Below are positions 36,468 through 47,079 of a stretch of 64,000 bases of DNA, piece after piece (the stretch's first letter is position 1; every line of letters starts with the position of its first letter). Position numbers and translations under genes: made by a program. The notes beneath the pieces are model-generated. The model saw only the letters and a list, made by a program, of their open reading frames with translations, did no database searches and was not told the DNA's origin. Source of the DNA: Bacteroidales bacterium (lineage in GTDB: Bacteria > Bacteroidota > Bacteroidia > Bacteroidales > FEN-979); the NCBI GenBank assembly GCA_017882335.1, contig JADGPR010000008.1, positions 2,268-66,267 on the forward strand, read 5' to 3'.

Positions 36468-37268
36468 TTATCCTCCAATATTATGAAATAAGTTGTGATT
36501 GTTGATCTTCCCTTTTTCCGGTTTTGTAGTTATCGCGCTGAGCATGGCTTCCCGGATCCCCAGATCACGGATGCTGTATTCGAGATTGGCGAACAGGCAG
36601 GGTTTGATCATTCCGTTTGCTGTTAACCTCAATCGGTTACAGTTTCTGCAGTTCCCTCCGTCACCGCCTTCCACCAGCGTAAAACAGCCGGTATCAAGAT
36701 CCATTTCGTGAATAAACCTGACTTCAAGGCCATTTTGCCGGCAAAAGTTCCCGACTTCAATTGCATCAGGTTCAAGGGAAGAATTTTTAACAACACAATT
36801 TATCTTGATGGGTAAAATACCGGCTTCTTTCGCAGCATGAATCCCGGAAAAGACTTTTTCCAGTTCACCACCACGTGTGATCTGCCGGTATTTCTCAGGA
36901 TTGATGGTATCAAGGCTGATGTTCACCCTATGAAGCCCGGCTCTTGAAAGATCTGAAGCAAATTGATCAAGAAGGATCCCGTTCGTAGTCATGCCAAAGT
37001 CGGTGATCCCTTTTAGTTGAGCGATCATTTCCACGAAGCCGACCACGCCTTTTCTCACAAGCGGTTCGCCTCCCGTGATCCTCACCTTGGTGATCCCAAG
37101 ACGGATCCCTTCACGGATCACCTCAAGAATTTCTTCATACGAGATGATCTCCGAATGATCCATCAACCGGATGCCTTCTTCGGGCATGCAGTATACGCAC
37201 CTCAGATTGCACCGGTCTGTAATAGAGACCCTGAGATAGCTGATGGAACGGTTAAATGGATCGAACAT
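36468..37268 (-). CDS. moaA: GTP 3',8-cyclase MoaA (short form)
   Basis: YLRVSITDRCNLRCVYC, TGGEPL, CRNCNRLRLTANG.IKPC, C-terminal IGG. Confidence 0.9.
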   Translation of the reverse strand: MFDPFNRSISYLRVSITDRCNLRCVYCMPEEGIRLMDHSEIISYEEILEVIREGIRLGITKVRITGGEPLVRKGVVGFVEMIAQLKGITDFGMTTNGILLDQFASDLSRAGLHRVNISLDTINPEKYRQITRGGELEKVFSGIHAAKEAGILPIKINCVVKNSSLEPDAIEVGNFCRQNGLEVRFIHEMDLDTGCFTLVEGGDGGNCRNCNRLRLTANGMIKPCLFANLEYSIRDLGIREAMLSAITTKPEKGKINNHNLFHNIGG

Positions 37269-38424
37269 CTGCAATTTCTCCTTTTACCAATTCTGTTTTT
37301 CCGATTTCGATCGTGATAATCCCGTGAGCCTGTGTATAGGCATTGATGTGTGCCGAACCATGATATTCCACCGGGAAAACCAACCCGTTTTCAATTCTGA
37401 CGGGGATCAGAGATTTCCGTTCGGATTTTTCTCTTTTAAAGTTTGTTCCTAAAGGCAAATGAAGCATCTCCGGTTCTTCCAGGCATCCCATCATCCTGAG
37501 CAGGAAAGGTTTTACAAGGACTTCGAAAAGCACAAATGACGAAACAGGGTTTCCCGGCAATCCGAAAATAAATTGATTTCCCCGTTTCCCGAAAACGGTA
37601 GGCCTGCCGGGCTGGATGGCAACACTTTTAAAGAGGATATCAATATTCAATTTTTCCATTGCCTTCGGAACATAATCAAAATCACCCATTGAAACACCCC
37701 CGGTAAGGAGAACTACATCATTACGGTCGAGTGAATCTGACAACTTAACCGACAAGGCAATCTCATTGTCGGCAGCAATCCCTCCGTATTGAGGATGAGC
37801 GCCTGCAGTGGAAACCTGTGCGATTAACTGGTAAGCATTGGTATTCCTTATTTTTGAAGGTGAGGGGAGATGTTGCGGCTCCACCAGTTCATCTCCGGTT
37901 GACAGGATTCCAACATGAATCTGTTTTGATACCTTCGGATTAACAGCTCCTGTAATAGCCAGTACTGAAATGTGTTGGGGCTTTATAAGAATTCCTTTCG
38001 AGAGGACCTTATCGCCTGCTTTTATGTCTTCACCCTGGTAACAGATGTTCAGGGATTCCAGTCTTTTGGTTGTTCGCATCATCCCATTATCCAGGATCTG
38101 TGTGTCTTCAACCATTACCACACAATCCGATCCTTCCGGGAGCATGGCTCCGGTCATAATCCGGGAACATTTTCCTTTGCTGATCGTGAATTCAGGGGTT
38201 TTCCCTGCCGGAATGGTTTCGATTATCTCAAGGTCATGGTCAATATCTGCCATCCTGCCGGCAAACCCATCTACTGCGGATTTATTAAAAGGAGGAATAT
38301 CGATATCGGATAAGATATCTTCCGCAAGAATTCGGCCAAGGCTATCCATGATGTTAACCCGTTCTGATGGGAAAACGGTAACATGATTCATTACGATCCG
38401 GTAAGCTTCCTCAAAGGAAATCAT
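37252..38424 (-). CDS. moeA: Molybdopterin metal insertase MoeA
   Basis: PPFNKSAVDG, RIMTGA, STGDEL, TGGVSMGDFD, PGRP, GLPGNPVS. Confidence 0.93.
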   Translation of the reverse strand: MISFEEAYRIVMNHVTVFPSERVNIMDSLGRILAEDILSDIDIPPFNKSAVDGFAGRMADIDHDLEIIETIPAGKTPEFTISKGKCSRIMTGAMLPEGSDCVVMVEDTQILDNGMMRTTKRLESLNICYQGEDIKAGDKVLSKGILIKPQHISVLAITGAVNPKVSKQIHVGILSTGDELVEPQHLPSPSKIRNTNAYQLIAQVSTAGAHPQYGGIAADNEIALSVKLSDSLDRNDVVLLTGGVSMGDFDYVPKAMEKLNIDILFKSVAIQPGRPTVFGKRGNQFIFGLPGNPVSSFVLFEVLVKPFLLRMMGCLEEPEMLHLPLGTNFKREKSERKSLIPVRIENGLVFPVEYHGSAHINAYTQAHGIITIEIGKTELVKGEIADVRSI

Positions 38425-38507: not shown

Positions 38508-39611
38508 TTATGCCGGGATGAACCTGACCGCAGTGGCTTTGAAATGGAGCCAGATCTTCTTTCCTTCCTTGAGTTTAAGATGTGCCAGCGATTCAGCCGT
38601 GATCAGCGCGTGAAGCGTGATCCCTGCATCAACAACGACATCAATACCCCTTACTCCGGGAATGATCTCGGTGATGGTTCCCTCGAAATTATTTGTTGCA
38701 CTCGAATCAAAAGATTCAATGGAAAGGATGATATCTTCACCCCTGATCAGGATAAAACCCTCAGGCCCGGTATCAGGCGGGAGCAGCCTGACGGCAATGG
38801 TTTTATCTACAATGGCAACGCTGTTATTATTCTCACTGGCTAACCGTGCCTTGAAAAAATTCCTGGCTCCGACAAAATGTGCAACAAACTCTGATTTTGG
38901 ATTCCGGAACACCTTTTCCGGTGTGCCTTCCTGGATAATGGATCCATCATGAATTACCGCAATTCTGTTACCGAGTGAAAGGGCTTCTTCATAATCATGC
39001 GTCACATGAAGGATCGTTTGTCCCTGACGGTGGATATTCCTTAATTGGCTTCGGAGGTCTGATTTAATGCGGGTATCGAGCGAAGCAAGGGGTTCGTCGA
39101 GCAACAGAACCTTAGGTTGCTGGATCAGCGTCCGGGCCAGGGCAACCCGTTGCATCTCCCCGCCCGAAAGGGTGGAAGGCCTCCTGTCAAGAAGTCCTGA
39201 GATACTCAATTGTTCTGCAATCAGGTGAACCCTCTCTTTTTTTTCTTCACGACTTACTTTCCGGGCGTGCAGGGAATAGGCGATGTTTTCGTAAACAGTC
39301 ATGTGTGGGAAAACAGCATGGTCCTGGAATACCAACCCGATTCCCCGGTTCTGGATCTTGTGATGGGTAATGTCGTTGCCTTCCATTATTATGTATCCGC
39401 TTTCGGGATGAACCAGCCCGGCTATGGTTTCCAGTAACATCGATTTACCTGCGCCAGACTCGCCCAACAGAATGAAATAATCACCCTGTTCAACCGAGAA
39501 AGAGACATCCTTCAAACAGAAATTCAAAAATCGCTTTGAAATATTTTTAAGTTCTAGAATAATGTCACCCCTGCGGGGTTCAAGGGTATTTTTTATTTTT
39601 TTTTTCACCAT
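38508..39611 (-). CDS. wtpC: Tungstate/molybdate ABC transporter ATPase with C-terminal TOBE domain
   Basis: GESGAGKS, LSGGEMQR, LLLDEP, HVTHD; TOBE SATNNFEGTI..ALIT..FKATAV. First ~18 aa are repeat-derived. Confidence 0.85.
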   Translation of the reverse strand: MVKKKIKNTLEPRRGDIILELKNISKRFLNFCLKDVSFSVEQGDYFILLGESGAGKSMLLETIAGLVHPESGYIIMEGNDITHHKIQNRGIGLVFQDHAVFPHMTVYENIAYSLHARKVSREEKKERVHLIAEQLSISGLLDRRPSTLSGGEMQRVALARTLIQQPKVLLLDEPLASLDTRIKSDLRSQLRNIHRQGQTILHVTHDYEEALSLGNRIAVIHDGSIIQEGTPEKVFRNPKSEFVAHFVGARNFFKARLASENNNSVAIVDKTIAVRLLPPDTGPEGFILIRGEDIILSIESFDSSATNNFEGTITEIIPGVRGIDVVVDAGITLHALITAESLAHLKLKEGKKIWLHFKATAVRFIPA

Positions 39612-39790
39612 TTTGCTAGAATAATGTCACCCCTGTGGGGTTCAAAGGTATTTTTTATTTTATTTTTCACCATTTCGCTAGAATAATGTCACTCCTGTGG
39701 GGTTCAAGGGTATTTTTTATTTTTTTTTCACCATTTCGCTAGAATAATGTCACCCCTACGGGGTTTATAGGTATTTTTTATTTTTTTTCG
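39554..39790. repeat. Four tandem 61-62-bp REP-like units with a CCCC-N3-GGGG hairpin
   Basis: Units start at 39554, 39616, 39678, 39739: ctagaataatgtcacccctRYggggtt..ggta-T-tract-caccatttcg. Confidence 0.93.
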
Positions 39791-40582
39791 CTATTTCGCT
39801 ACTTCGCTATTTTTCTCTTTCGCAAGCCATCTCAGCATGATAAACAATGTCAGGGAAATCAGGATGAATAAAACAGAAACAGGCCGTGCATATTTCAATC
39901 CGAAAGCCCCAAACCGTTCATAGATCAGCACCGGTGTAATCATGGGGTGATAAGCAACGACGATAACGGCACCGAATTCACTCATTCCGCGTGCAAACAT
40001 GAGGATCAGGCCTGAAACAACATTTCTCCAGGCCAATGGCAGGGAGATGGTGAAGAAAACCCTGGCCGGTGTTGCACCCAGCGTAAGTGCTGCCTTTTCA
40101 GTACGTTCCGGAACACCGGCAAAACCGTCACGGGCAGCATTTATAAGGTATGGAATGCTCACAAACGCCATAGCAATGGCGATCCCGGCAGGATTCCCGA
40201 TAAAATTCAGGCCGATAGCCGAACCCATTTTACCCAATACGGTGTCCCTGGAAACGAACCCAAGGATCGCGATCCCGGCTGCAGAATGAGGAATCACAAT
40301 GGGAAGGTCAATAATGCCTGTAACCAACTTTTTGAGGGGGAATTTTTTTCTTGCCAGGAGATAAGCGAGTGGAATGGCAGCCAATGCAAATAACGAAGTA
40401 GCCGCCATCGAGGTCCAGATGGTCAGCCAGATACTGCCGGTGACTTCTTTGTCTTTTGCTGTCTCAAACAAACTCTGCGGACTGGTCTTGAAGAACATCC
40501 CCAGCAAAGGGGCCAGTATGAAAAGCAGGACCAGCGACCCGAGGAGGATGAAGACCAATTGTATGGGTTGATAGCGTTTCAA
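39791..40582 (-). CDS. wtpB: Tungstate/molybdate ABC transporter permease
   Basis: DLPIVIPHSAAGIA, EAA-like EKAALTLGA, ARGMSEFGAV..AYHP. Confidence 0.85.
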   Translation of the reverse strand: MKRYQPIQLVFILLGSLVLLFILAPLLGMFFKTSPQSLFETAKDKEVTGSIWLTIWTSMAATSLFALAAIPLAYLLARKKFPLKKLVTGIIDLPIVIPHSAAGIAILGFVSRDTVLGKMGSAIGLNFIGNPAGIAIAMAFVSIPYLINAARDGFAGVPERTEKAALTLGATPARVFFTISLPLAWRNVVSGLILMFARGMSEFGAVIVVAYHPMITPVLIYERFGAFGLKYARPVSVLFILISLTLFIMLRWLAKEKNSEVAK

Positions 40583-40657: not shown

Positions 40658-41623
40658 CTATTTCCCTTCTTTTGCAAATGCTTTCAGCTCTTTCGGAAGT
40701 TTATCGTAATTCTTTGTTGGCATGGGCAGAACCGATGATTGTCCATTCTTCTCCATGATTTTCATCCCCTTTTCTTTGGAAAGAAGGAACTGCAGAAACG
40801 CAATAGCTGCCGGTTTATTCGGTGCATCGCGCAACATCGTTACACCATAAACCATGGGTTCCCCTTTCACGGTTTCTTTCTTTCCCGGTTCTTTTCCGTT
40901 GATCTCTGTAACGGCTTTGGCATATAGTGCGGCAAAACCCATGTTTTTCAGGTTGATCTCATCGGGCAGAGTAATGTATTTCAGGTTATGTTGAATAGCG
41001 ACCGAGCGGTAAAGAAAGATATAATCGATGCTGCCTGATTCCAGTAATGCAAGCAGGTCAACTTCTTTCGGCCGGATGTAGTTCTGATCCTTGCCGGAAA
41101 TCATTTTTGCAAGTCCCGGTTTTTTATAAAATTTCTCTGCCAGTTGAAGTGACATGACGGTACGATAGCCGCAGGGATCGGCATTGGGATCAGCACGGCC
41201 AAAAGCAACTTCATTTTTCATCAGGAGTTCATACCAGTTTTTCGAATTAATCTGGCCGGCAAGTCGAGATTTTTCCTGGTAGACGATTGAGAGTTCATTA
41301 CTGACAAACTTGATGTTCCAGTCTGCATATTTCGGGATCAGCATGTTATCAATCACTCCATAATCGGATGATGCCAGAATATCGCATGGACGATTGAGAT
41401 CGGTGATTTTCCGGGCAGAAGCCACACTGCCAGCCGATTCCATCAGGATCTTCACATTCGGATACAATTTATTGAATTCAGCAGCAATTTCCTTAAAAGG
41501 AACCGAAAGACTTCCAGCATGAAAAATGATCAGATCACCTGAAATAGCATCGTTTTTTTTCTGACTGAATATAGAAATGGACATTAATGCTGCCGTAATA
41601 AGTAGAAAATATTTCTTCGTCAT
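40658..41623 (-). CDS. wtpA: WtpA-type tungstate/molybdate-binding protein
   Basis: IFHAGSLSVPF, GSVASARKI, DPNADPCGYR, RPKEVDL, YIFLYRSVA, YGVT: WtpA-like pattern, longer than ModA. Confidence 0.85.
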   Translation of the reverse strand: MTKKYFLLITAALMSISIFSQKKNDAISGDLIIFHAGSLSVPFKEIAAEFNKLYPNVKILMESAGSVASARKITDLNRPCDILASSDYGVIDNMLIPKYADWNIKFVSNELSIVYQEKSRLAGQINSKNWYELLMKNEVAFGRADPNADPCGYRTVMSLQLAEKFYKKPGLAKMISGKDQNYIRPKEVDLLALLESGSIDYIFLYRSVAIQHNLKYITLPDEINLKNMGFAALYAKAVTEINGKEPGKKETVKGEPMVYGVTMLRDAPNKPAAIAFLQFLLSKEKGMKIMEKNGQSSVLPMPTKNYDKLPKELKAFAKEGK

Positions 41624-41685
41624 AACTAAAGATTATCGTAGACATTATTATTCTGCATTCTGATTTCTGAATTCTTAATTCTGAA

Positions 41686-42060
41686 TTATTCCAAGTCCTG
41701 GATGAATTTCTCAAATCCTTCCTGAATAACAGAATCCACCGCTGCATGAAAATGGTCGAAAGCCTGTACCAGTTTTTTCCCTTCAGGTGTGAGCATAGTG
41801 CGGCCTCCGTCACTTCCGCCCCGTTGTTTTTCCAGAAGCGGGAATCCGAAGAATTGCTCGATCTTTTTCAGGTTACCCCATGTTCTGCGATAAGTGTATC
41901 CGAGCTCATCACAAGCAGCTTTTATGGATCCTTTTTCTTCGATCAGTTTCAGTATCTGCCATTTTCCATCGCCAAGGATCCCCTTTTCATCTTTATCAGA
42001 CATCCATATCTTGTAATGAAGGTGGATGCTCGATAAGCGGTTAGTGAATGTTTTTTCCAT
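41686..42060 (-). CDS. ModE-family winged-helix regulator (DNA-binding domain only)
   Basis: ILGDGK..LK.IEEKGSIKAAC.ELGYTYRRTW, RGGSDGG.T.LT; 124 aa with no molbindin/TOBE domains. Confidence 0.85.
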   Translation of the reverse strand: MEKTFTNRLSSIHLHYKIWMSDKDEKGILGDGKWQILKLIEEKGSIKAACDELGYTYRRTWGNLKKIEQFFGFPLLEKQRGGSDGGRTMLTPEGKKLVQAFDHFHAAVDSVIQEGFEKFIQDLE

Positions 42061-42094
42061 AGGTTACAATGTTTACGCAAAATTAGTTTTTTTT

Positions 42095-42118
42095 CGATAT
42101 GTCGGTATCAACATATCG
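42095..42118. promoter_or_regulatory. Putative ModE-type operator CGATATGT-N8-ACATATCG
   Basis: Perfect inverted repeat between the divergent modE and pruA promoters; second copy at 46119-46142. Confidence 0.75.
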
Positions 42119-42186
42119 AAAAAAATATCTATAAAATAGAAGCGTTCTAAATAATTTGTACATTTGCATACAAAAAGTTTGAATTT

Positions 42187-43827
42187 ATGAACAATGCAAT
42201 TTTTAACATGGAACGCCCGGTCAATGAACACGCGATGGATTATGCTCCGGGTTGTAAAGAAAGAAAAGCGCTGAATTCAGAACTCACCCGTATGAGCAAT
42301 GAAGTGATAGACATTCCGCTGATCATCGATGGGAAGGAAGTCAGGACCGGCGATACCGGGAAGATTGCGATGCCTCATGATCACCAGCATGTGCTTGCCA
42401 ATTATCATAAGGCAGGAGAGAAGGAGGTGAAAATGGCCATTAATGCAGCCCTGAAAGCCCACACGGAATGGTCATCCTTTTCCTGGGTCGAACGGGTCTC
42501 CATCAACCTGAAGATAGCCGAGCTGGTGGCAAAAAAATACCGGTTTGTAATGAATGCCGCTACCATGCTGGGACAAGGAAAGAACGCATACCAGGCTGAG
42601 ATTGACGCAGCCTGTGAGACCATCGATTTTCTCAGGTACAATGCCTGGTTCACTTCTGAAATATATAAGCTTCAACCCAATTCACAATCGGGTGTAATCA
42701 ACCGCACGGAATACCGGCCATTGGAAGGATTCATCTTTACGGTTTCTCCGTTTAATTTCACTGCCATCGGCTCGAACCTGAACCTGGCTCCCGTGGTGAT
42801 GGGAAATACGGTGGTCTGGAAACCCTCCTCCACAAGCCTGTTATCAAATTACTATCTTATGAAGATTTACAAAGAAGCCGGTGTTCCAGACGGGGTGATC
42901 AATTTCTTACCGGGATCAGGGAGCCTGATCAGCAAAACAGTTTTAGAACACAGGGATTTTACCGGGATTCATTTTACCGGATCAACCGGGACCTTTAACG
43001 GGATTTGGAAGACCATCACAGAAAACATCAGGACTTACAAATCATATCCAAGGATCGTTGGTGAAACTGGCGGGAAAGACTTCATCTTTGTACATTCTTC
43101 CGCCGATCCTCAGGAAGTAGCCGTTGCCATAGTGAGAGGCGCTTTTGAATACCAGGGGCAAAAATGTTCGGCTGCTTCCCGTGCTTATATCCCGGAATCA
43201 TTATGGACTGATATTAAAAACCGGATGGGCGAAATGATCTCACGGATCACAGTAGGGGATGTCAACGAGTTCAGCCATTTTATGAATGCAGTCATTGATG
43301 AAAAGTCGTTTGATAACATCATGGGAACCATCGGCTATGCAAAAAAATCGAACGATGCGGAAGTGATCTTTGGCGGAAATGGCGAAAAATCGAAAGGATA
43401 TTTTATTGAACCAACTGTGATTCTCACAAAAGATCCCCATTTCAAAACGATGGAAGAAGAGATCTTTGGTCCGGTAATGACCATCTATGTTTATAAGGAT
43501 AAGGATTTTGAAGCTACCCTGAAGATCTGTGACCAGACTTCACCCTATGCCTTGACCGGATCCGTCTTTGCAAAAGACAGGGAAGCCCTGAACCATGCCT
43601 GTCGTATCCTGCGGTATGCTGCCGGAAACATGTACTTCAATGATAAGCCATCCGGTGCGGTTGTGGGACAACAGCCTTTCGGCGGTGCGAGAGGTTCAGG
43701 TACCAATGATAAATCAGGGAGTTTTCTGAACCTGTTACGCTGGACAAGCCCGAGGACGATCAAAGAAACCCTGATCCCTCCTACAGAATTTACTTATCCG
43801 TTCATGAAGGAAGACCGCTGTCACTGA
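42187..43827 (+). CDS. pruA: L-glutamate gamma-semialdehyde (P5C) dehydrogenase
   Basis: YRPLEGF, SPFNFTAI, HFTGST, GETGGKDF, FEYQGQKCSA, EEIFGP, QQPFGGARGSGTNDK. Confidence 0.93.
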   Translation: MNNAIFNMERPVNEHAMDYAPGCKERKALNSELTRMSNEVIDIPLIIDGKEVRTGDTGKIAMPHDHQHVLANYHKAGEKEVKMAINAALKAHTEWSSFSWVERVSINLKIAELVAKKYRFVMNAATMLGQGKNAYQAEIDAACETIDFLRYNAWFTSEIYKLQPNSQSGVINRTEYRPLEGFIFTVSPFNFTAIGSNLNLAPVVMGNTVVWKPSSTSLLSNYYLMKIYKEAGVPDGVINFLPGSGSLISKTVLEHRDFTGIHFTGSTGTFNGIWKTITENIRTYKSYPRIVGETGGKDFIFVHSSADPQEVAVAIVRGAFEYQGQKCSAASRAYIPESLWTDIKNRMGEMISRITVGDVNEFSHFMNAVIDEKSFDNIMGTIGYAKKSNDAEVIFGGNGEKSKGYFIEPTVILTKDPHFKTMEEEIFGPVMTIYVYKDKDFEATLKICDQTSPYALTGSVFAKDREALNHACRILRYAAGNMYFNDKPSGAVVGQQPFGGARGSGTNDKSGSFLNLLRWTSPRTIKETLIPPTEFTYPFMKEDRCH

Positions 43828-43875
43828 TCGTGACGCGTGACGCGTGACGCGGAAAAGATGAATGAAGCTTCAAAT

Positions 43876-46038
43876 TTATTCCTGGAACAGTGCAACGGTT
43901 TCAATCAATTCCGGAAGATCCATGCCGATATTTTTCAGGTGTTCGATCTTCGGAACGCCATTCTTATTCCATCCGCGACGCTCATAAACGGCATCAAGCA
44001 ACTGCTCATACTGATCTTCCCGGTATGTGCGGAGGACTGCCATCTTCTCTTCGGTTGACTTCCCGGAAGGATCAAACGCTACTTTTTCCAGCAGCTGTTT
44101 GTCATAACGTTCAGCGCGGGATTCATACTCTTCTTTCGTCACCGGTCCGCAGGCACGGTAGGGTTGTGCATCATGCTTACGCATACCATAGCCCCTGCGC
44201 AGGTTGAAAATCCGCTGAAAATTATAAACCCGTTCTGATTGCCTTAAAAGTTCAGTCTTATCGATATTCTGGCCGGTAACAGCATTAAATATGGTTACGT
44301 AATTGTCAACGTGCTCCGGCACTTTTGCGGGTTCGGAAGATTGGGGATTGTCTTCAGGTTCGACATCATTCCAAGGCAGTTTGCAGAATCCTGCCAATCC
44401 AAACCAGGTACGGAACATCGGGAAGTAATGCAGGGCTTCGGCTTTCTTTTCAAAGGTGGGGATCTGGTTGTTCACCATATCCATGAAGATCAACCATGCT
44501 TCGTCGTGCTGCGGTCCTTTGTTTGTCATTGCATACCCTCCCTGCTGTGCAAGGGATTCTTTGGAAACATACTGCGAATATTCCAGTCCTTTGTTTTCCA
44601 TTCCGATGTCCTGCATGAACTTCGGGTCTCCCCAGCCATTCTTTGCAAAAATTTCTTTCATCTTTCTGACTCCCTGTCCGGCGATGGGACCAAAGCCTTC
44701 ACCCCGTGAAACCTGGTGAAGGAGATCCATAGCTGCATCGGCATTCCCGAAATTCAGTTTCAGTCCGCCTGTACGTTCTTCATTCAGGATGCCGGTTTCA
44801 TAGCATTCCATGACAAAACCAAGAATGGTTCCCCAGCTGATGGTGCAGATGCCGTAAGTATCACAATAAAAGTTAGCTTCAATGGTGAAATCAGGATTAA
44901 AGATCCCGGCAATGGATCCCAACGATGAGGTTGTTTCGTATTCCGGTCCATCAACAATCACCTTATCCCCTTTGTAAGGGCCGGAACGAAGTTCGTAATT
45001 ATCAACACCTTTGGCGCACGACATGTTACAACCGATCCAGCATCCGTCGGGGACATTTTGAGTAAAATACGATTTCCAGACATCCCCGCGGATTTTAACT
45101 GCATCAGGATGGCTTCCAAACCGGAAATTGTTGACCGGGAGAAGGTCATAGTCGTTCATGATGAGGGTGAGGTGGGCCGTTCCTTTCGACCGCATTTCGC
45201 ATTGTTTGTCGTCCAATTCACGCATCTCTTTGTTGAAGCGGCGTCCGCGTTCCTGGATGGCTTCAAGGTTCGCCACATTGTTACGGTTTCCGCCGATGTT
45301 TTTCACCTTTGCAACCAGCGCCTTCACTTTTTTGTCGCGCAGCACTGTGCCGATCCCGCCGCGTCCGGCCTGCTTCAGGCGGACCAGTTTGCGTTTAGGA
45401 TCATAAAATGTGAAATTCAGCATCCCGATGAGGGAATGCTCGGCCGCAGTACCGGCAGCAACAACCGCCACATTCATTTTGTCCTTCTCATTGTCTTCCT
45501 TTGCAAAGGTTTCATGCAGGATTTCCCCGAGAATGTGGCTGTCGGAAGGCAGGTCGCCTGCTTCATAGATCTCAACAACTTCGCGCTCTTCGTCCAGTAA
45601 AATCATGATTTCCTGGTCCGACTTTCCCTGCAATTCAATGGCATCAAATCCGCAGAATTTCAGAAAAGGGCCAAAGAAACCGCCAACATTGGAGTCGACG
45701 ATGATATCGGTTTGCGGACTGATGGCGCAACAGATGGCTTTGCCGGCACCGGAATACTGAGTGATGCCGCAACAAGGCCCACCGGAAATGACGATCTCGT
45801 TTTCCGGGTCATTCCATTTTGTGCCGGGTTTCGTAGCATCCCATAATAGGCGGAGGTCAAATCCTTTTCCTCCAATGAATTTATCTTTCATTTGCTGGGT
45901 AACCGGCTTTTCCTTGATGGTGCGATCGCCAACATTTACATAAAGCGTGCGGTTGTTGTAGCCTTTGTCAATCGGGGCCCAGGTGTATTTGTAGGTTGCG
46001 AGCAGTTTGTGTTTTTCTTTGAATTCTGCGAGTTTCAT
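43876..46038 (-). CDS. Aldehyde:ferredoxin oxidoreductase family (tungstopterin, 4Fe-4S)
   Basis: FIGGKG, SNVGG, QAGRGGIG, CWIGCNMSC, GPEYET, CDTYG, GFCK, YERRGW..NGVP. Start moved to MKLAEF. Confidence 0.9.
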   Translation of the reverse strand: MKLAEFKEKHKLLATYKYTWAPIDKGYNNRTLYVNVGDRTIKEKPVTQQMKDKFIGGKGFDLRLLWDATKPGTKWNDPENEIVISGGPCCGITQYSGAGKAICCAISPQTDIIVDSNVGGFFGPFLKFCGFDAIELQGKSDQEIMILLDEEREVVEIYEAGDLPSDSHILGEILHETFAKEDNEKDKMNVAVVAAGTAAEHSLIGMLNFTFYDPKRKLVRLKQAGRGGIGTVLRDKKVKALVAKVKNIGGNRNNVANLEAIQERGRRFNKEMRELDDKQCEMRSKGTAHLTLIMNDYDLLPVNNFRFGSHPDAVKIRGDVWKSYFTQNVPDGCWIGCNMSCAKGVDNYELRSGPYKGDKVIVDGPEYETTSSLGSIAGIFNPDFTIEANFYCDTYGICTISWGTILGFVMECYETGILNEERTGGLKLNFGNADAAMDLLHQVSRGEGFGPIAGQGVRKMKEIFAKNGWGDPKFMQDIGMENKGLEYSQYVSKESLAQQGGYAMTNKGPQHDEAWLIFMDMVNNQIPTFEKKAEALHYFPMFRTWFGLAGFCKLPWNDVEPEDNPQSSEPAKVPEHVDNYVTIFNAVTGQNIDKTELLRQSERVYNFQRIFNLRRGYGMRKHDAQPYRACGPVTKEEYESRAERYDKQLLEKVAFDPSGKSTEEKMAVLRTYREDQYEQLLDAVYERRGWNKNGVPKIEHLKNIGMDLPELIETVALFQE

Positions 46039-46118
46039 AGGAGTCGGAATTAACAGGGATGGTTTCGAATGTAAAATTAAATAAAAAATCAATGTAACTG
46101 ATAGGAATTCAAAAAGTT

Positions 46119-46142
46119 CGATATGCCATGATGTGCATATCG
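46119..46142. promoter_or_regulatory. Putative ModE-type operator CGATATGC-N8-GCATATCG
   Basis: Perfect inverted repeat between divergent aor and thiF; same length and arms as 42095-42118. Confidence 0.75.
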
Positions 46143-46262
46143 ATGGAAGTCATTTCGGCAGGAAATCAGGTGATTAATCCATTTTTGTTAATTTTGCGTC
46201 AAAGAATGGATCACTGACTGAAAAACAGCGAATCCTTAAATCGTAAACACCAACACCGTGTC

Positions 46263-46841
46263 ATGACATTCGAAGAGATTAAGAAAATCCTTCAACACAA
46301 GATCGTGGGGATTGCCGGTGCCGGCGGACTCGGATCCAATTGTGCAGTGGCACTTGCCCGTGTAGGAACCGGTACACTCATTATTGCTGATTTTGATGTG
46401 GTGAGCGAGAGCAACCTGAACCGTCAGTATTTTTTTTATGACCAGATCGGGAAACCCAAAGCAGATGCACTAAAGGAAAACATTCAAAGGATCAATCCTT
46501 CCGTGAAGGTTATTACGCACAATATTTGTCTTACAAGAGATAATATTCCCGTCCTTTTCAGGGATTGCGATGTCATCGTTGAGGCATTTGACCTGGCAGA
46601 TCAAAAAGAGATGCTGATAGAAACCGTGCTGACTGAGTTTCCGGAAAAACCACTTGTCATCGGGCTTGGTATAGCCGGGTGGGGGAATAATGATGGTATT
46701 CATTGCCGGAAAGTAGATAATATGTTTATTTGTGGGGATGAGATCTCTGAAATTACTCCCGATTTACCTCCAATTGCCCCAAGAGTGGGGATTGTTGCCA
46801 ATATGCAGGCAAATATTGTACTGGACCTGTTGTTGAAGTAG
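46263..46841 (+). CDS. thiF: ThiF/MoeB family sulfur-carrier adenylyltransferase
   Basis: GIAGAGGLGS, DFDVVSESNLNRQ, VEAFD, APRVGIVANMQAN. Confidence 0.85.
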   Translation: MTFEEIKKILQHKIVGIAGAGGLGSNCAVALARVGTGTLIIADFDVVSESNLNRQYFFYDQIGKPKADALKENIQRINPSVKVITHNICLTRDNIPVLFRDCDVIVEAFDLADQKEMLIETVLTEFPEKPLVIGLGIAGWGNNDGIHCRKVDNMFICGDEISEITPDLPPIAPRVGIVANMQANIVLDLLLK

Positions 46842-46875
46842 AAAATGGAAGAAAGAATTTTGAAAATCTGAAAAA

Positions 46876-47079
46876 ATGCAAATCACTTTAAATAATAATT
46901 CGGAAATCCTTGAAGGAAACAGTATCACGGTAAATCATCTGCTCCAACTGAAGAAATTTACCTTTAAGATGCTGATCATAAAAATCAATGGAACCCTTGT
47001 ACAGAAGGGGTCTTACGAAACAACCGCCATCCATGACGGGGATGAGGTCTCGGTATTGCACCTCATTAGTGGCGGCTGA
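46876..47079 (+). CDS. thiS: ThiS/MoaD ubiquitin-like sulfur carrier
   Basis: 67 aa; ING..V, DGDEV, C-terminal SGG. Confidence 0.85.
   Translation: MQITLNNNSEILEGNSITVNHLLQLKKFTFKMLIIKINGTLVQKGSYETTAIHDGDEVSVLHLISGG

Follow-up and report, generated by a model that had tools for sequence, protein, structure and literature searches.

The locus

We examined two perfect 24-base palindromes and the small ModE-type protein encoded beside one of them in a 64,000-nt stretch (the window) of contig JADGPR010000008.1 from a Bacteroidales bacterium (GenBank assembly GCA_017882335.1). Each palindrome lies between the starts of two divergent genes, at the coordinates given by a first-pass annotation of the window: the first between the modE-like gene (start at 42060, minus strand) and pruA (42187, plus strand), the second between the gene of an aldehyde:ferredoxin oxidoreductase (AOR; 46038, minus strand) and thiF (46263, plus strand). 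We consider the two palindromes, with a probability of about 0.8, to be predicted operators for a dimer of the 124-aa ModE-type protein that define a small tungsten/pterin-cofactor regulon. The sequence, conservation and genomic specificity of the sites, the homology of the regulator and the promoter geometry were computed directly. The features of the locus are:

Operator 1: 42095-42118, CGATATGT-CGGTATCA-ACATATCG, N8 spacer, common to the divergent modE-like and pruA promoters
Operator 2: 46119-46142, CGATATGC-CATGATGT-GCATATCG, N8 spacer, common to the divergent AOR and thiF promoters
-7 element of the regulator-wtp operon: 42078-42085, minus strand, TAATTTTG, exact TAnnTTTG, 9 nt from operator 1
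-7 element of pruA: 42159-42166, plus strand, TACATTTG, exact TAnnTTTG, 40 nt from operator 1
-7-like element of AOR: 46072-46079, minus strand, TAATTTTA, differing from TAnnTTTG in one base, 39 nt from operator 2
-7 element of thiF: 46189-46196, plus strand, TAATTTTG, exact TAnnTTTG, 46 nt from operator 2
Extension block: 46109-46118, minus strand, AACTTTTTGA, 10 nt, abutting the AOR side of operator 2
Regulator: 41686-42060, minus strand, ModE N-domain-only protein of 124 aa with a winged helix-turn-helix (HTH); Pfam HTH_1 only, above cut-off
wtpA: 40658-41623, minus strand, tungstate/molybdate-binding protein; NF003196 WtpA 375.4 bits versus a cut-off of 355, TIGR03730 325.9 versus 242.75
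wtpB: 39791-40582, minus strand, permease; best family NF040839 with 284.2 bits, below the cut-off of 340
wtpC: 38508-39611, minus strand, ATPase with a C-terminal TOBE domain; best family with 384.3 bits, below the cut-off of 440
moeA: 37252-38424, minus strand, metal insertion into the pterin; by family matches
moaA: 36468-37274, minus strand, GTP 3',8-cyclase; by family matches
pruA: 42187-43827, plus strand, NAD-dependent L-glutamate gamma-semialdehyde dehydrogenase; TIGR01236 756 bits versus a cut-off of 613.6
AOR: 43876-46038, minus strand, tungsten-type aldehyde:ferredoxin oxidoreductase of 720 aa; AFOR_N and AFOR_C
thiF: 46263-46841, plus strand, thiF/moeB-like adenylyltransferase; by family matches
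thiS: 46876-47079, plus strand, thiS/moaD-like sulfur carrier; by family matches

Both boxes match the outer CGnTAT...ATAnCG inverted-repeat pattern that also finds the modA operator of Escherichia coli K-12 (CGTTATATTGTCGCCTACATAACG), which has the same 24-bp frame. The ModE-box format proposed in the first-pass annotation thus holds, as do the distances of 9, 40, 39 and 46 nt that it gave between the boxes and the four -7 elements. The AOR gene is the single AFOR gene of the genome, and the closest solved relative of its product is the P. furiosus AOR (PDB 1aor, E 1e-49). The transporter was classed as WtpABC by its WtpA-type binding protein, which scores above the curated cut-off, and its selectivity for tungstate is a prediction; a Wtp-related system is termed 'molybdate/tungstate' in PMC12327845.

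A short ModE-type regulator

A profile built from 35 orthologues of the regulator matches PDB 2ijl_A (135 aa, 'molybdenum-binding transcriptional repressor') with an E value of 4e-14 and, over the DNA-binding domain, the E. coli ModE structures 1b9m (E 3.5e-10) and 1o7l (E 5.2e-10). The protein is the sole ModE_repress match in the genome. It lacks the C-terminal di-Mop region of full-length ModE, which consists of two TOBE domains: there are 0 TOBE matches in its 124 aa, Pfam yields HTH_1 alone, as the first-pass annotation had held, and the model of full-length ModE (NF007957/PRK10676) gives 33.9 bits versus a cut-off of 369. By length and similarity, it falls into the class of stand-alone ModE N-domains (2ijl-like, ~110-140 aa). 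The ModE N-domain family comprised 509 cluster representatives at E ≤1e-10, and 132 of the 150 best are no longer than 160 aa. The 80 orthologues that we collected align over 100-124 query residues, most of them over at least 111, and no longer fused relative was found among proteins of 218-2000 aa, which is weak evidence.

Conservation of the predicted operators and a refined motif

The 80 orthologues are encoded in metagenome-assembled loci of Bacteroidales, some of them in records labelled Draconibacterium and Prolixibacteraceae, and are 54-88% identical to the regulator. Gene order at these loci is AOR / pruA / (MFS) / regulator-wtpA-(lipoprotein, TonB receptor)-wtpBC-moeA-moaA or the shorter regulator-moeA-moaA. 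The best site was exact in 32 loci, had one mismatch in 22 and two mismatches in 8, and was missing in 18. We then counted sites with up to 2 mismatches in 14 positions in unique 250-nt upstream regions of individual genes, using operon-internal genes as the control; random windows from the same loci were discarded as a control, since true sites fell inside them. The regions with a site were:

Regulator: 49 of 85
pruA: 46 of 55
AOR: 23 of 26
thiF: 9 of 19
Lipoprotein (unk301): 15 of 29
Porin: 3 of 3
wtpA: 1 of 46
wtpB: 1 of 22
wtpC: 0 of 21
moeA: 0 of 44
moaA: 0 of 38
thiS: 0 of 10
TonB receptor: 0 of 14

The motif is thus conserved upstream of orthologues of the regulator, pruA, AOR and thiF, contrary to the refuting condition named in the first-pass annotation, and moeA was read as operon-internal because none of its 44 orthologues has an operator upstream. 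In most orthologous loci, the regulator site lies 33-38 nt before the ATG, matching the place of operator 1, and the pruA operator is kept also at loci with 1.5 kb between pruA and the regulator. Conservation is confined to the half-sites; the 8-nt spacer is free to vary. Two positions that had been left free in the search were nevertheless restricted among 131 sites: position 8 was C in 93, T in 38 and never A or G, and position 17 was A in 77, G in 52, T in 2 and never C. This mirror-symmetrical constraint (Y/R) makes CGATATGY-N8-RCATATCG the real motif.

Upstream of AOR, the AACTTTTTGA block reaches a conservation of at least 80% in 24 regions, and it may represent the site of a second factor or an extended contact. 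Another conserved element in these regions, TTAC, is located ~21 nt from the operator.

Some loci depart from the common arrangement. In the loci L066-L085, whose records bear the labels Lentimicrobium and Lentimicrobiaceae, the regulator belongs to a more distant clade (54-66% identity), with no recognisable site within the 260 nt before the regulator gene (best 4 of 16 mismatches, the rest at least 5). Four of them (L070, L073, L080 and L083) nevertheless have an exact site before the lipoprotein gene, and two (L068 and L081) have a weaker one before AOR. Elsewhere (L021, L040, L042 and L057), short tandem repeats between the -7 box and the ATG lengthen the regulator leader from ~24 nt to 100-170 nt; the leader repeat units in several relatives include GTCACCAT, CACAGAGT/CACAAAGT and CCATTTCA.

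Specificity in the genome and family

Within the window, the pattern occurs at 2 places without mismatch; the other 3 matches have 3 mismatches and are at chance level (5 found in total versus 2.65 expected). The first-pass annotation had derived CGATATG-N10-CATATCG from the boxes for a scan of the genome (3,133,807 bases, or 3.13 Mb; 96.7% complete), and boxes 1 and 2 turned out to be its only exact matches. One further place had one mismatch and 8 had two, compared with 2 matches at ≤2 mismatches for the reversed control pattern. Across the genomes of the family, 57 exact sites were found in 39 of 61, and the reversed pattern gave none in all 61. Outside the source genome, 54 of the 55 exact sites precede the regulator, pruA, AOR/thiF, a lipoprotein/TonB-receptor operon, a porin gene or wtpB (21 pruA and/or the regulator, 15 AOR and/or thiF, 15 the lipoprotein with or without the TonB-dependent receptor, 2 the porin and 1 wtpB); the remaining site has no context call and lies on a short contig.

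The source genome also contains three molybdopterin-oxidoreductase (PF00384) genes on other contigs (C17, C3 and C27), and no operator at ≤2 mismatches was found on these contigs.

Promoter geometry and mode of action

Promoters of Bacteroidetes are described in PMC7366714 as having a -7 element TAnnTTTG and a TTTG near -33. We defined the gap as the distance from the operator edge to the next TAnnTTTG, with start positions inferred from sequence. For the regulator, 40 of 49 promoters had a gap of 9-11 nt, and the window has 9 nt. For pruA, 28 of 46 promoters fall in this range; in the window, in which the two genes have a single box in common, the gap is 40 nt. It was 14-15 nt in the two porin promoters in which TAnnTTTG was found. 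The operator of the lipoprotein/TonB-receptor operon of relatives likewise falls in the close-spacing class. Upstream of AOR, where the orthologues have TAnnTTTG, 20 of 23 promoters show a gap of 39-42 nt, and the window has 39 nt; for thiF, the gap was 21-22 nt in 5 of 9 promoters and is 46 nt in the window. The two-class geometry described in the first-pass annotation is therefore conserved across loci, and the fixed close versus far spacings suggest a dual regulator.

From these data, we infer binding by the 124-aa protein, the direction of its regulatory effects and its response to a metal signal. In the close class, the dimer would lie over the -33 region and most likely repress transcription by blocking RNA polymerase, while in the AOR class it would be centred ~65 nt upstream of the start and most likely activate. 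When the signal is on, uptake and the NAD-dependent aldehyde dehydrogenase would go down and the tungsten enzyme would go up. We assigned repression to the close class and activation to the AOR class because of the ModE precedent: the protein acts as an activator or repressor according to PMC12327845, and the E. coli K-12 annotation lists it as a dual regulator. By this analogy, the assignment of signs has about even odds.

The same operators and regulator might instead work in a single mode, either as a repressor everywhere, possibly metal-independent and autoregulated, or as an activator everywhere with the site replacing the -33 element, which we regard as possible if somewhat doubtful. Such a mode would fit the promoters with a close operator, which show no TTTG at the -33 distance, as well as the molybdenum-independent DNA binding reported in PMC12327845 for a ModE with reduced sensor domains, and all targets would be sensible as one tungsten-inducible set. 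The two sharply distinct and conserved spacings (9-11 versus 39-42 nt) are better explained by two modes, however, and the dual role of ModE just mentioned also argues for two.

How tungsten status might be sensed

The first-pass annotation had named the TOBE domain of WtpC as a candidate sensor, and its docking on the mini-ModE as a tungstate sensor in trans would have several points in its favor. The domain, at the C-terminus of WtpC, is the only TOBE domain of the genome, it is encoded in the same operon as the regulator, and its S-A-x-N and K-A residues, which resemble the oxyanion site described for ModE/Mop/Tub (PMC11672702; PMC11980592), are invariant in 20 orthologues. However, a TOBE match was present in only 40 of 61 family genomes, and 17 of the 61 combine the regulator and exact operators with zero TOBE matches. 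Genus g6 is the clearest case: all 11 of its genomes have sites, 10 of the 11 have the regulator, and none has a TOBE match. Five of the TOBE-less genomes, which are 94-98% complete, are also without any PF13531 binding protein. Many loci run from the regulator directly to moeA-moaA, with no wtpABC. A TOBE partner is thus not the general sensor, given that genomes with no TOBE domain retain both the regulator and its sites, and we consider this proposal improbable. When the regulator and the WtpC TOBE domain were co-folded from alignments of 35 and 20 rows, respectively, the score was 0.00 against a mark of 0.32, which speaks neither for nor against binding.

Another idea is that a ModE module free of oxyanion domains senses tungsten by an undescribed route and runs a tungsten-sparing AOR/PruA switch. 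The candidate routes would run through direct binding at the dimer, through the tungsten-pterin cofactor or through the co-transcribed MoeA. By synteny in the relative loci, moeA is the gene always co-transcribed with the regulator, and we treat its link to sensing as a lead only. With tungsten available, the ferredoxin-linked AOR would be on and the NAD-dependent PruA and uptake would be off. The uptake part would include outer-membrane gates, namely an AlgE-like porin in the source genome and a lipoprotein with a TonB-dependent receptor in relatives. Taken as a whole, this scheme is speculative and, in our estimate, rather unlikely.

Assignment of the operators and points against it

The operators very probably are binding sites of the 124-aa regulator, as predicted from the co-occurrence, position and form of the sites. 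An exact site was present in 38 of 54 genomes with the regulator and in 1 of 7 without it. The latter genome (G018, 94% complete), in which a site is kept and the regulator was not detected, would fit binding of the palindromes by some other transcription factor that the ModE-like gene merely adjoins; the co-occurrence overall, the fixed place before the regulator gene and the frame and core shared with verified ModE boxes make this very improbable. There is a negligible probability of the palindromes being fortuitous matches or hairpins of the terminator or repeat-element kind, given that half-sites are conserved around a variable spacer and that the control pattern is absent from 61 genomes, even if a simple scan flags both boxes as terminator-like. 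The terminator reading was rejected because each box is flanked by the starts of two divergent genes, a place at which no transcript ends.

In a genus-mate (G057, 80% complete), the regulator match (C25:214868-214996) ends after 43 residues at a TAA, with an exact operator 170 nt upstream; the regulator may be broken in this genome.

Several points weigh against the dual, metal-responsive regulon that we favor. The match of the regulator to TIGR00637 ModE_repress (E 2.1e-21, 75.8 bits) lies below the cut-off of 98.5; together with the matches to the ModE structures, it shows homology to ModE, not equivalog status. At ≤2 mismatches, 36 of the 85 regulator upstream regions have no site, including those of the distant clade. 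The 80 relative loci, unlike the whole-genome scans, were chosen via the regulator, and kinship among the family genomes means that the counts are not independent observations. The sign of regulation is ambiguous, as a site over the -33 region might also work like that of a class-II-type activator, and moeA and moaA belong to the operon read as repressed, while E. coli ModE is reported as an activator of moa (PMC11980592). Concerning the signal, PMC12327845 cites a truncated E. coli ModE as a metal-independent DNA binder and reports that molybdenum leaves DNA binding by the Methanosarcina ModE unchanged; by analogy, an N-domain-only ModE may bind DNA whatever the metal status.

Island genes and the wider putative regulon

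A third operator with one mismatch was found on another contig of the source genome (G000:C121:1804-1827, the same as L005:1804-1827). It is intergenic and lies 56 nt upstream of a gene for an Alginate_exp-family (AlgE-like) beta-barrel of the outer membrane with 481 aa, followed by queA. A site at ≤2 mismatches is located 46-65 nt upstream of 10 of 11 porin genes of the genus (the gene of the source genome and 9 of 10 orthologues). This AlgE-like porin is a candidate for a channel through which tungstate or molybdate crosses the outer membrane. In relatives (L033:7405-11642, L130:2501-5020, L139:203-2554 and others), an operator precedes the gene of a ~300-aa lipoprotein without Pfam family, which is often followed by genes for a Por-tail protein and a TonB-dependent receptor; the lipoprotein clusters are restricted to Bacteroidota in the ESM Atlas. 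This arrangement suggests TonB-dependent uptake of tungsten or molybdenum. A search of the source genome with the relatives' unk301 lipoprotein as query gave no match.

For the source genome, we infer a putative regulon consisting of the autoregulated regulator-wtpABC-moeA-moaA operon, pruA, AOR, thiF-thiS and the AlgE-like porin gene. The mini-regulon of the first-pass annotation therefore stands with respect to the operators and the island targets, and its restriction to two boxes does not, since the porin operator and the lipoprotein/TonB-receptor operon of relatives are added.

At the wtpB-wtpC junction (39554-39801 of the window), a 62-bp unit is repeated 4.0 times with 91% matches. Each copy carries the wtpC ribosome-binding region, the start and first codons plus a GC-rich hairpin, and the repeat therefore creates three short upstream reading frames before the real wtpC start. 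The wtpC leader repeat may be a real duplication or an assembly artefact. An Rfam scan of the window gave only a tRNA at gathering score and no Moco riboswitch or other RNA family. For 41500-46900 of the window, no RNA data set was listed among sequencing runs; a single run, of unknown type, matched part of it, with 0.33 of the sampled words.

Implications

Tungsten enzymes are common in anaerobes, but, to our knowledge, little has been described of how tungsten is sensed and rationed in bacteria outside the Proteobacteria and Desulfovibrio. The locus presented here provides a clean predicted pair of operator and regulator, kept across a family of uncultured Bacteroidales, and its regulator lacks the only known sensor domain of ModE. 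ModE boxes and ModE-domain-only proteins were known before. New are the content and rule of the regulon, with the wtpABC-moeA-moaA operon, the sole AOR, thiFS, pruA and outer-membrane proteins; the presence of pruA in the 'uptake-like' spacing class, opposite the tungsten enzyme; and the phyletic evidence for TOBE-independent sensing. A literature search, with subscription papers and RegPrecise outside its reach, found no paper on this regulon in Bacteroidota. The regulon sets two aldehyde-oxidising enzymes side by side, one tungsten-dependent and one not, and names candidates for tungstate uptake across the outer membrane, which, if true, would be the first regulon-defined outer-membrane tungstate/molybdate uptake systems in Bacteroidota. 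The motif CGATATGY-N8-RCATATCG offers a simple rule for annotating tungsten-controlled genes in Bacteroidales metagenomes.

Comparison with known systems

The closest parallel in format is the E. coli ModE/modA Mo-box, which is also a 24-bp inverted repeat and whose sequence, CGTTATATTGTCGCCTACATAACG, agrees with box 1 at 13 of 16 half-site bases. The E. coli operator, too, belongs to an oxyanion ABC-transporter promoter adjoining the regulator gene. Homology links the DNA-binding domains (1b9m, 1o7l), and the E. coli consensus ATCGNTATATA-N6-TATATANCGAT given in PMC545781 has its frame, core and spacing in common with the boxes described here. However, E. coli ModE has 262 aa and two Mop/TOBE subdomains that bind molybdate (PMC11672702), whereas the protein studied here has 124 aa and zero TOBE domains. 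The inner half-site is ATGY here and ATAT in E. coli; the sites described here sit in Bacteroidetes-type promoters, and their predicted targets comprise wtp, AOR, pruA and outer-membrane proteins.

The ModE box of Methanosarcina acetivorans, RTTATGT-N8-RCATAAY, was verified by electrophoretic mobility shift assay according to PMC12327845 and resembles our sites in its TATGY-N8-RCATA core and spacing; some of the orthologous sites read CGTTATG..., fitting its left half. In that archaeon, the modE gene likewise adjoins a Wtp-related transporter, and metal is reported to leave DNA binding in vitro unchanged. In contrast to the regulator studied here, the archaeal ModE keeps one Mop subdomain, and its regulon is centred on alternative nitrogenases (PMC12327845).

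The stand-alone ModE-domain proteins of Desulfovibrio and PDB 2ijl share with our regulator that they consist of the ModE N-domain only, and molybdenum sensing by such proteins was called unclear in 2004 (PMC545781). The Desulfovibrio proteins differ in the predicted site, given there as CGGTCACG-N14-CGTGACCG, and in MOP-fusion genes near their loci, of which the source genome has none. Finally, TaoR of Desulfovibrio alaskensis resembles the proposed regulator in tying tungsten status to AOR and transport and in binding in vitro that is reported as unaffected by tungstate (PMC12327845; PMC11980592). By its description in PMC11980592, it is set apart as a member of another family, in which an HTH is combined with a PBP-like domain.

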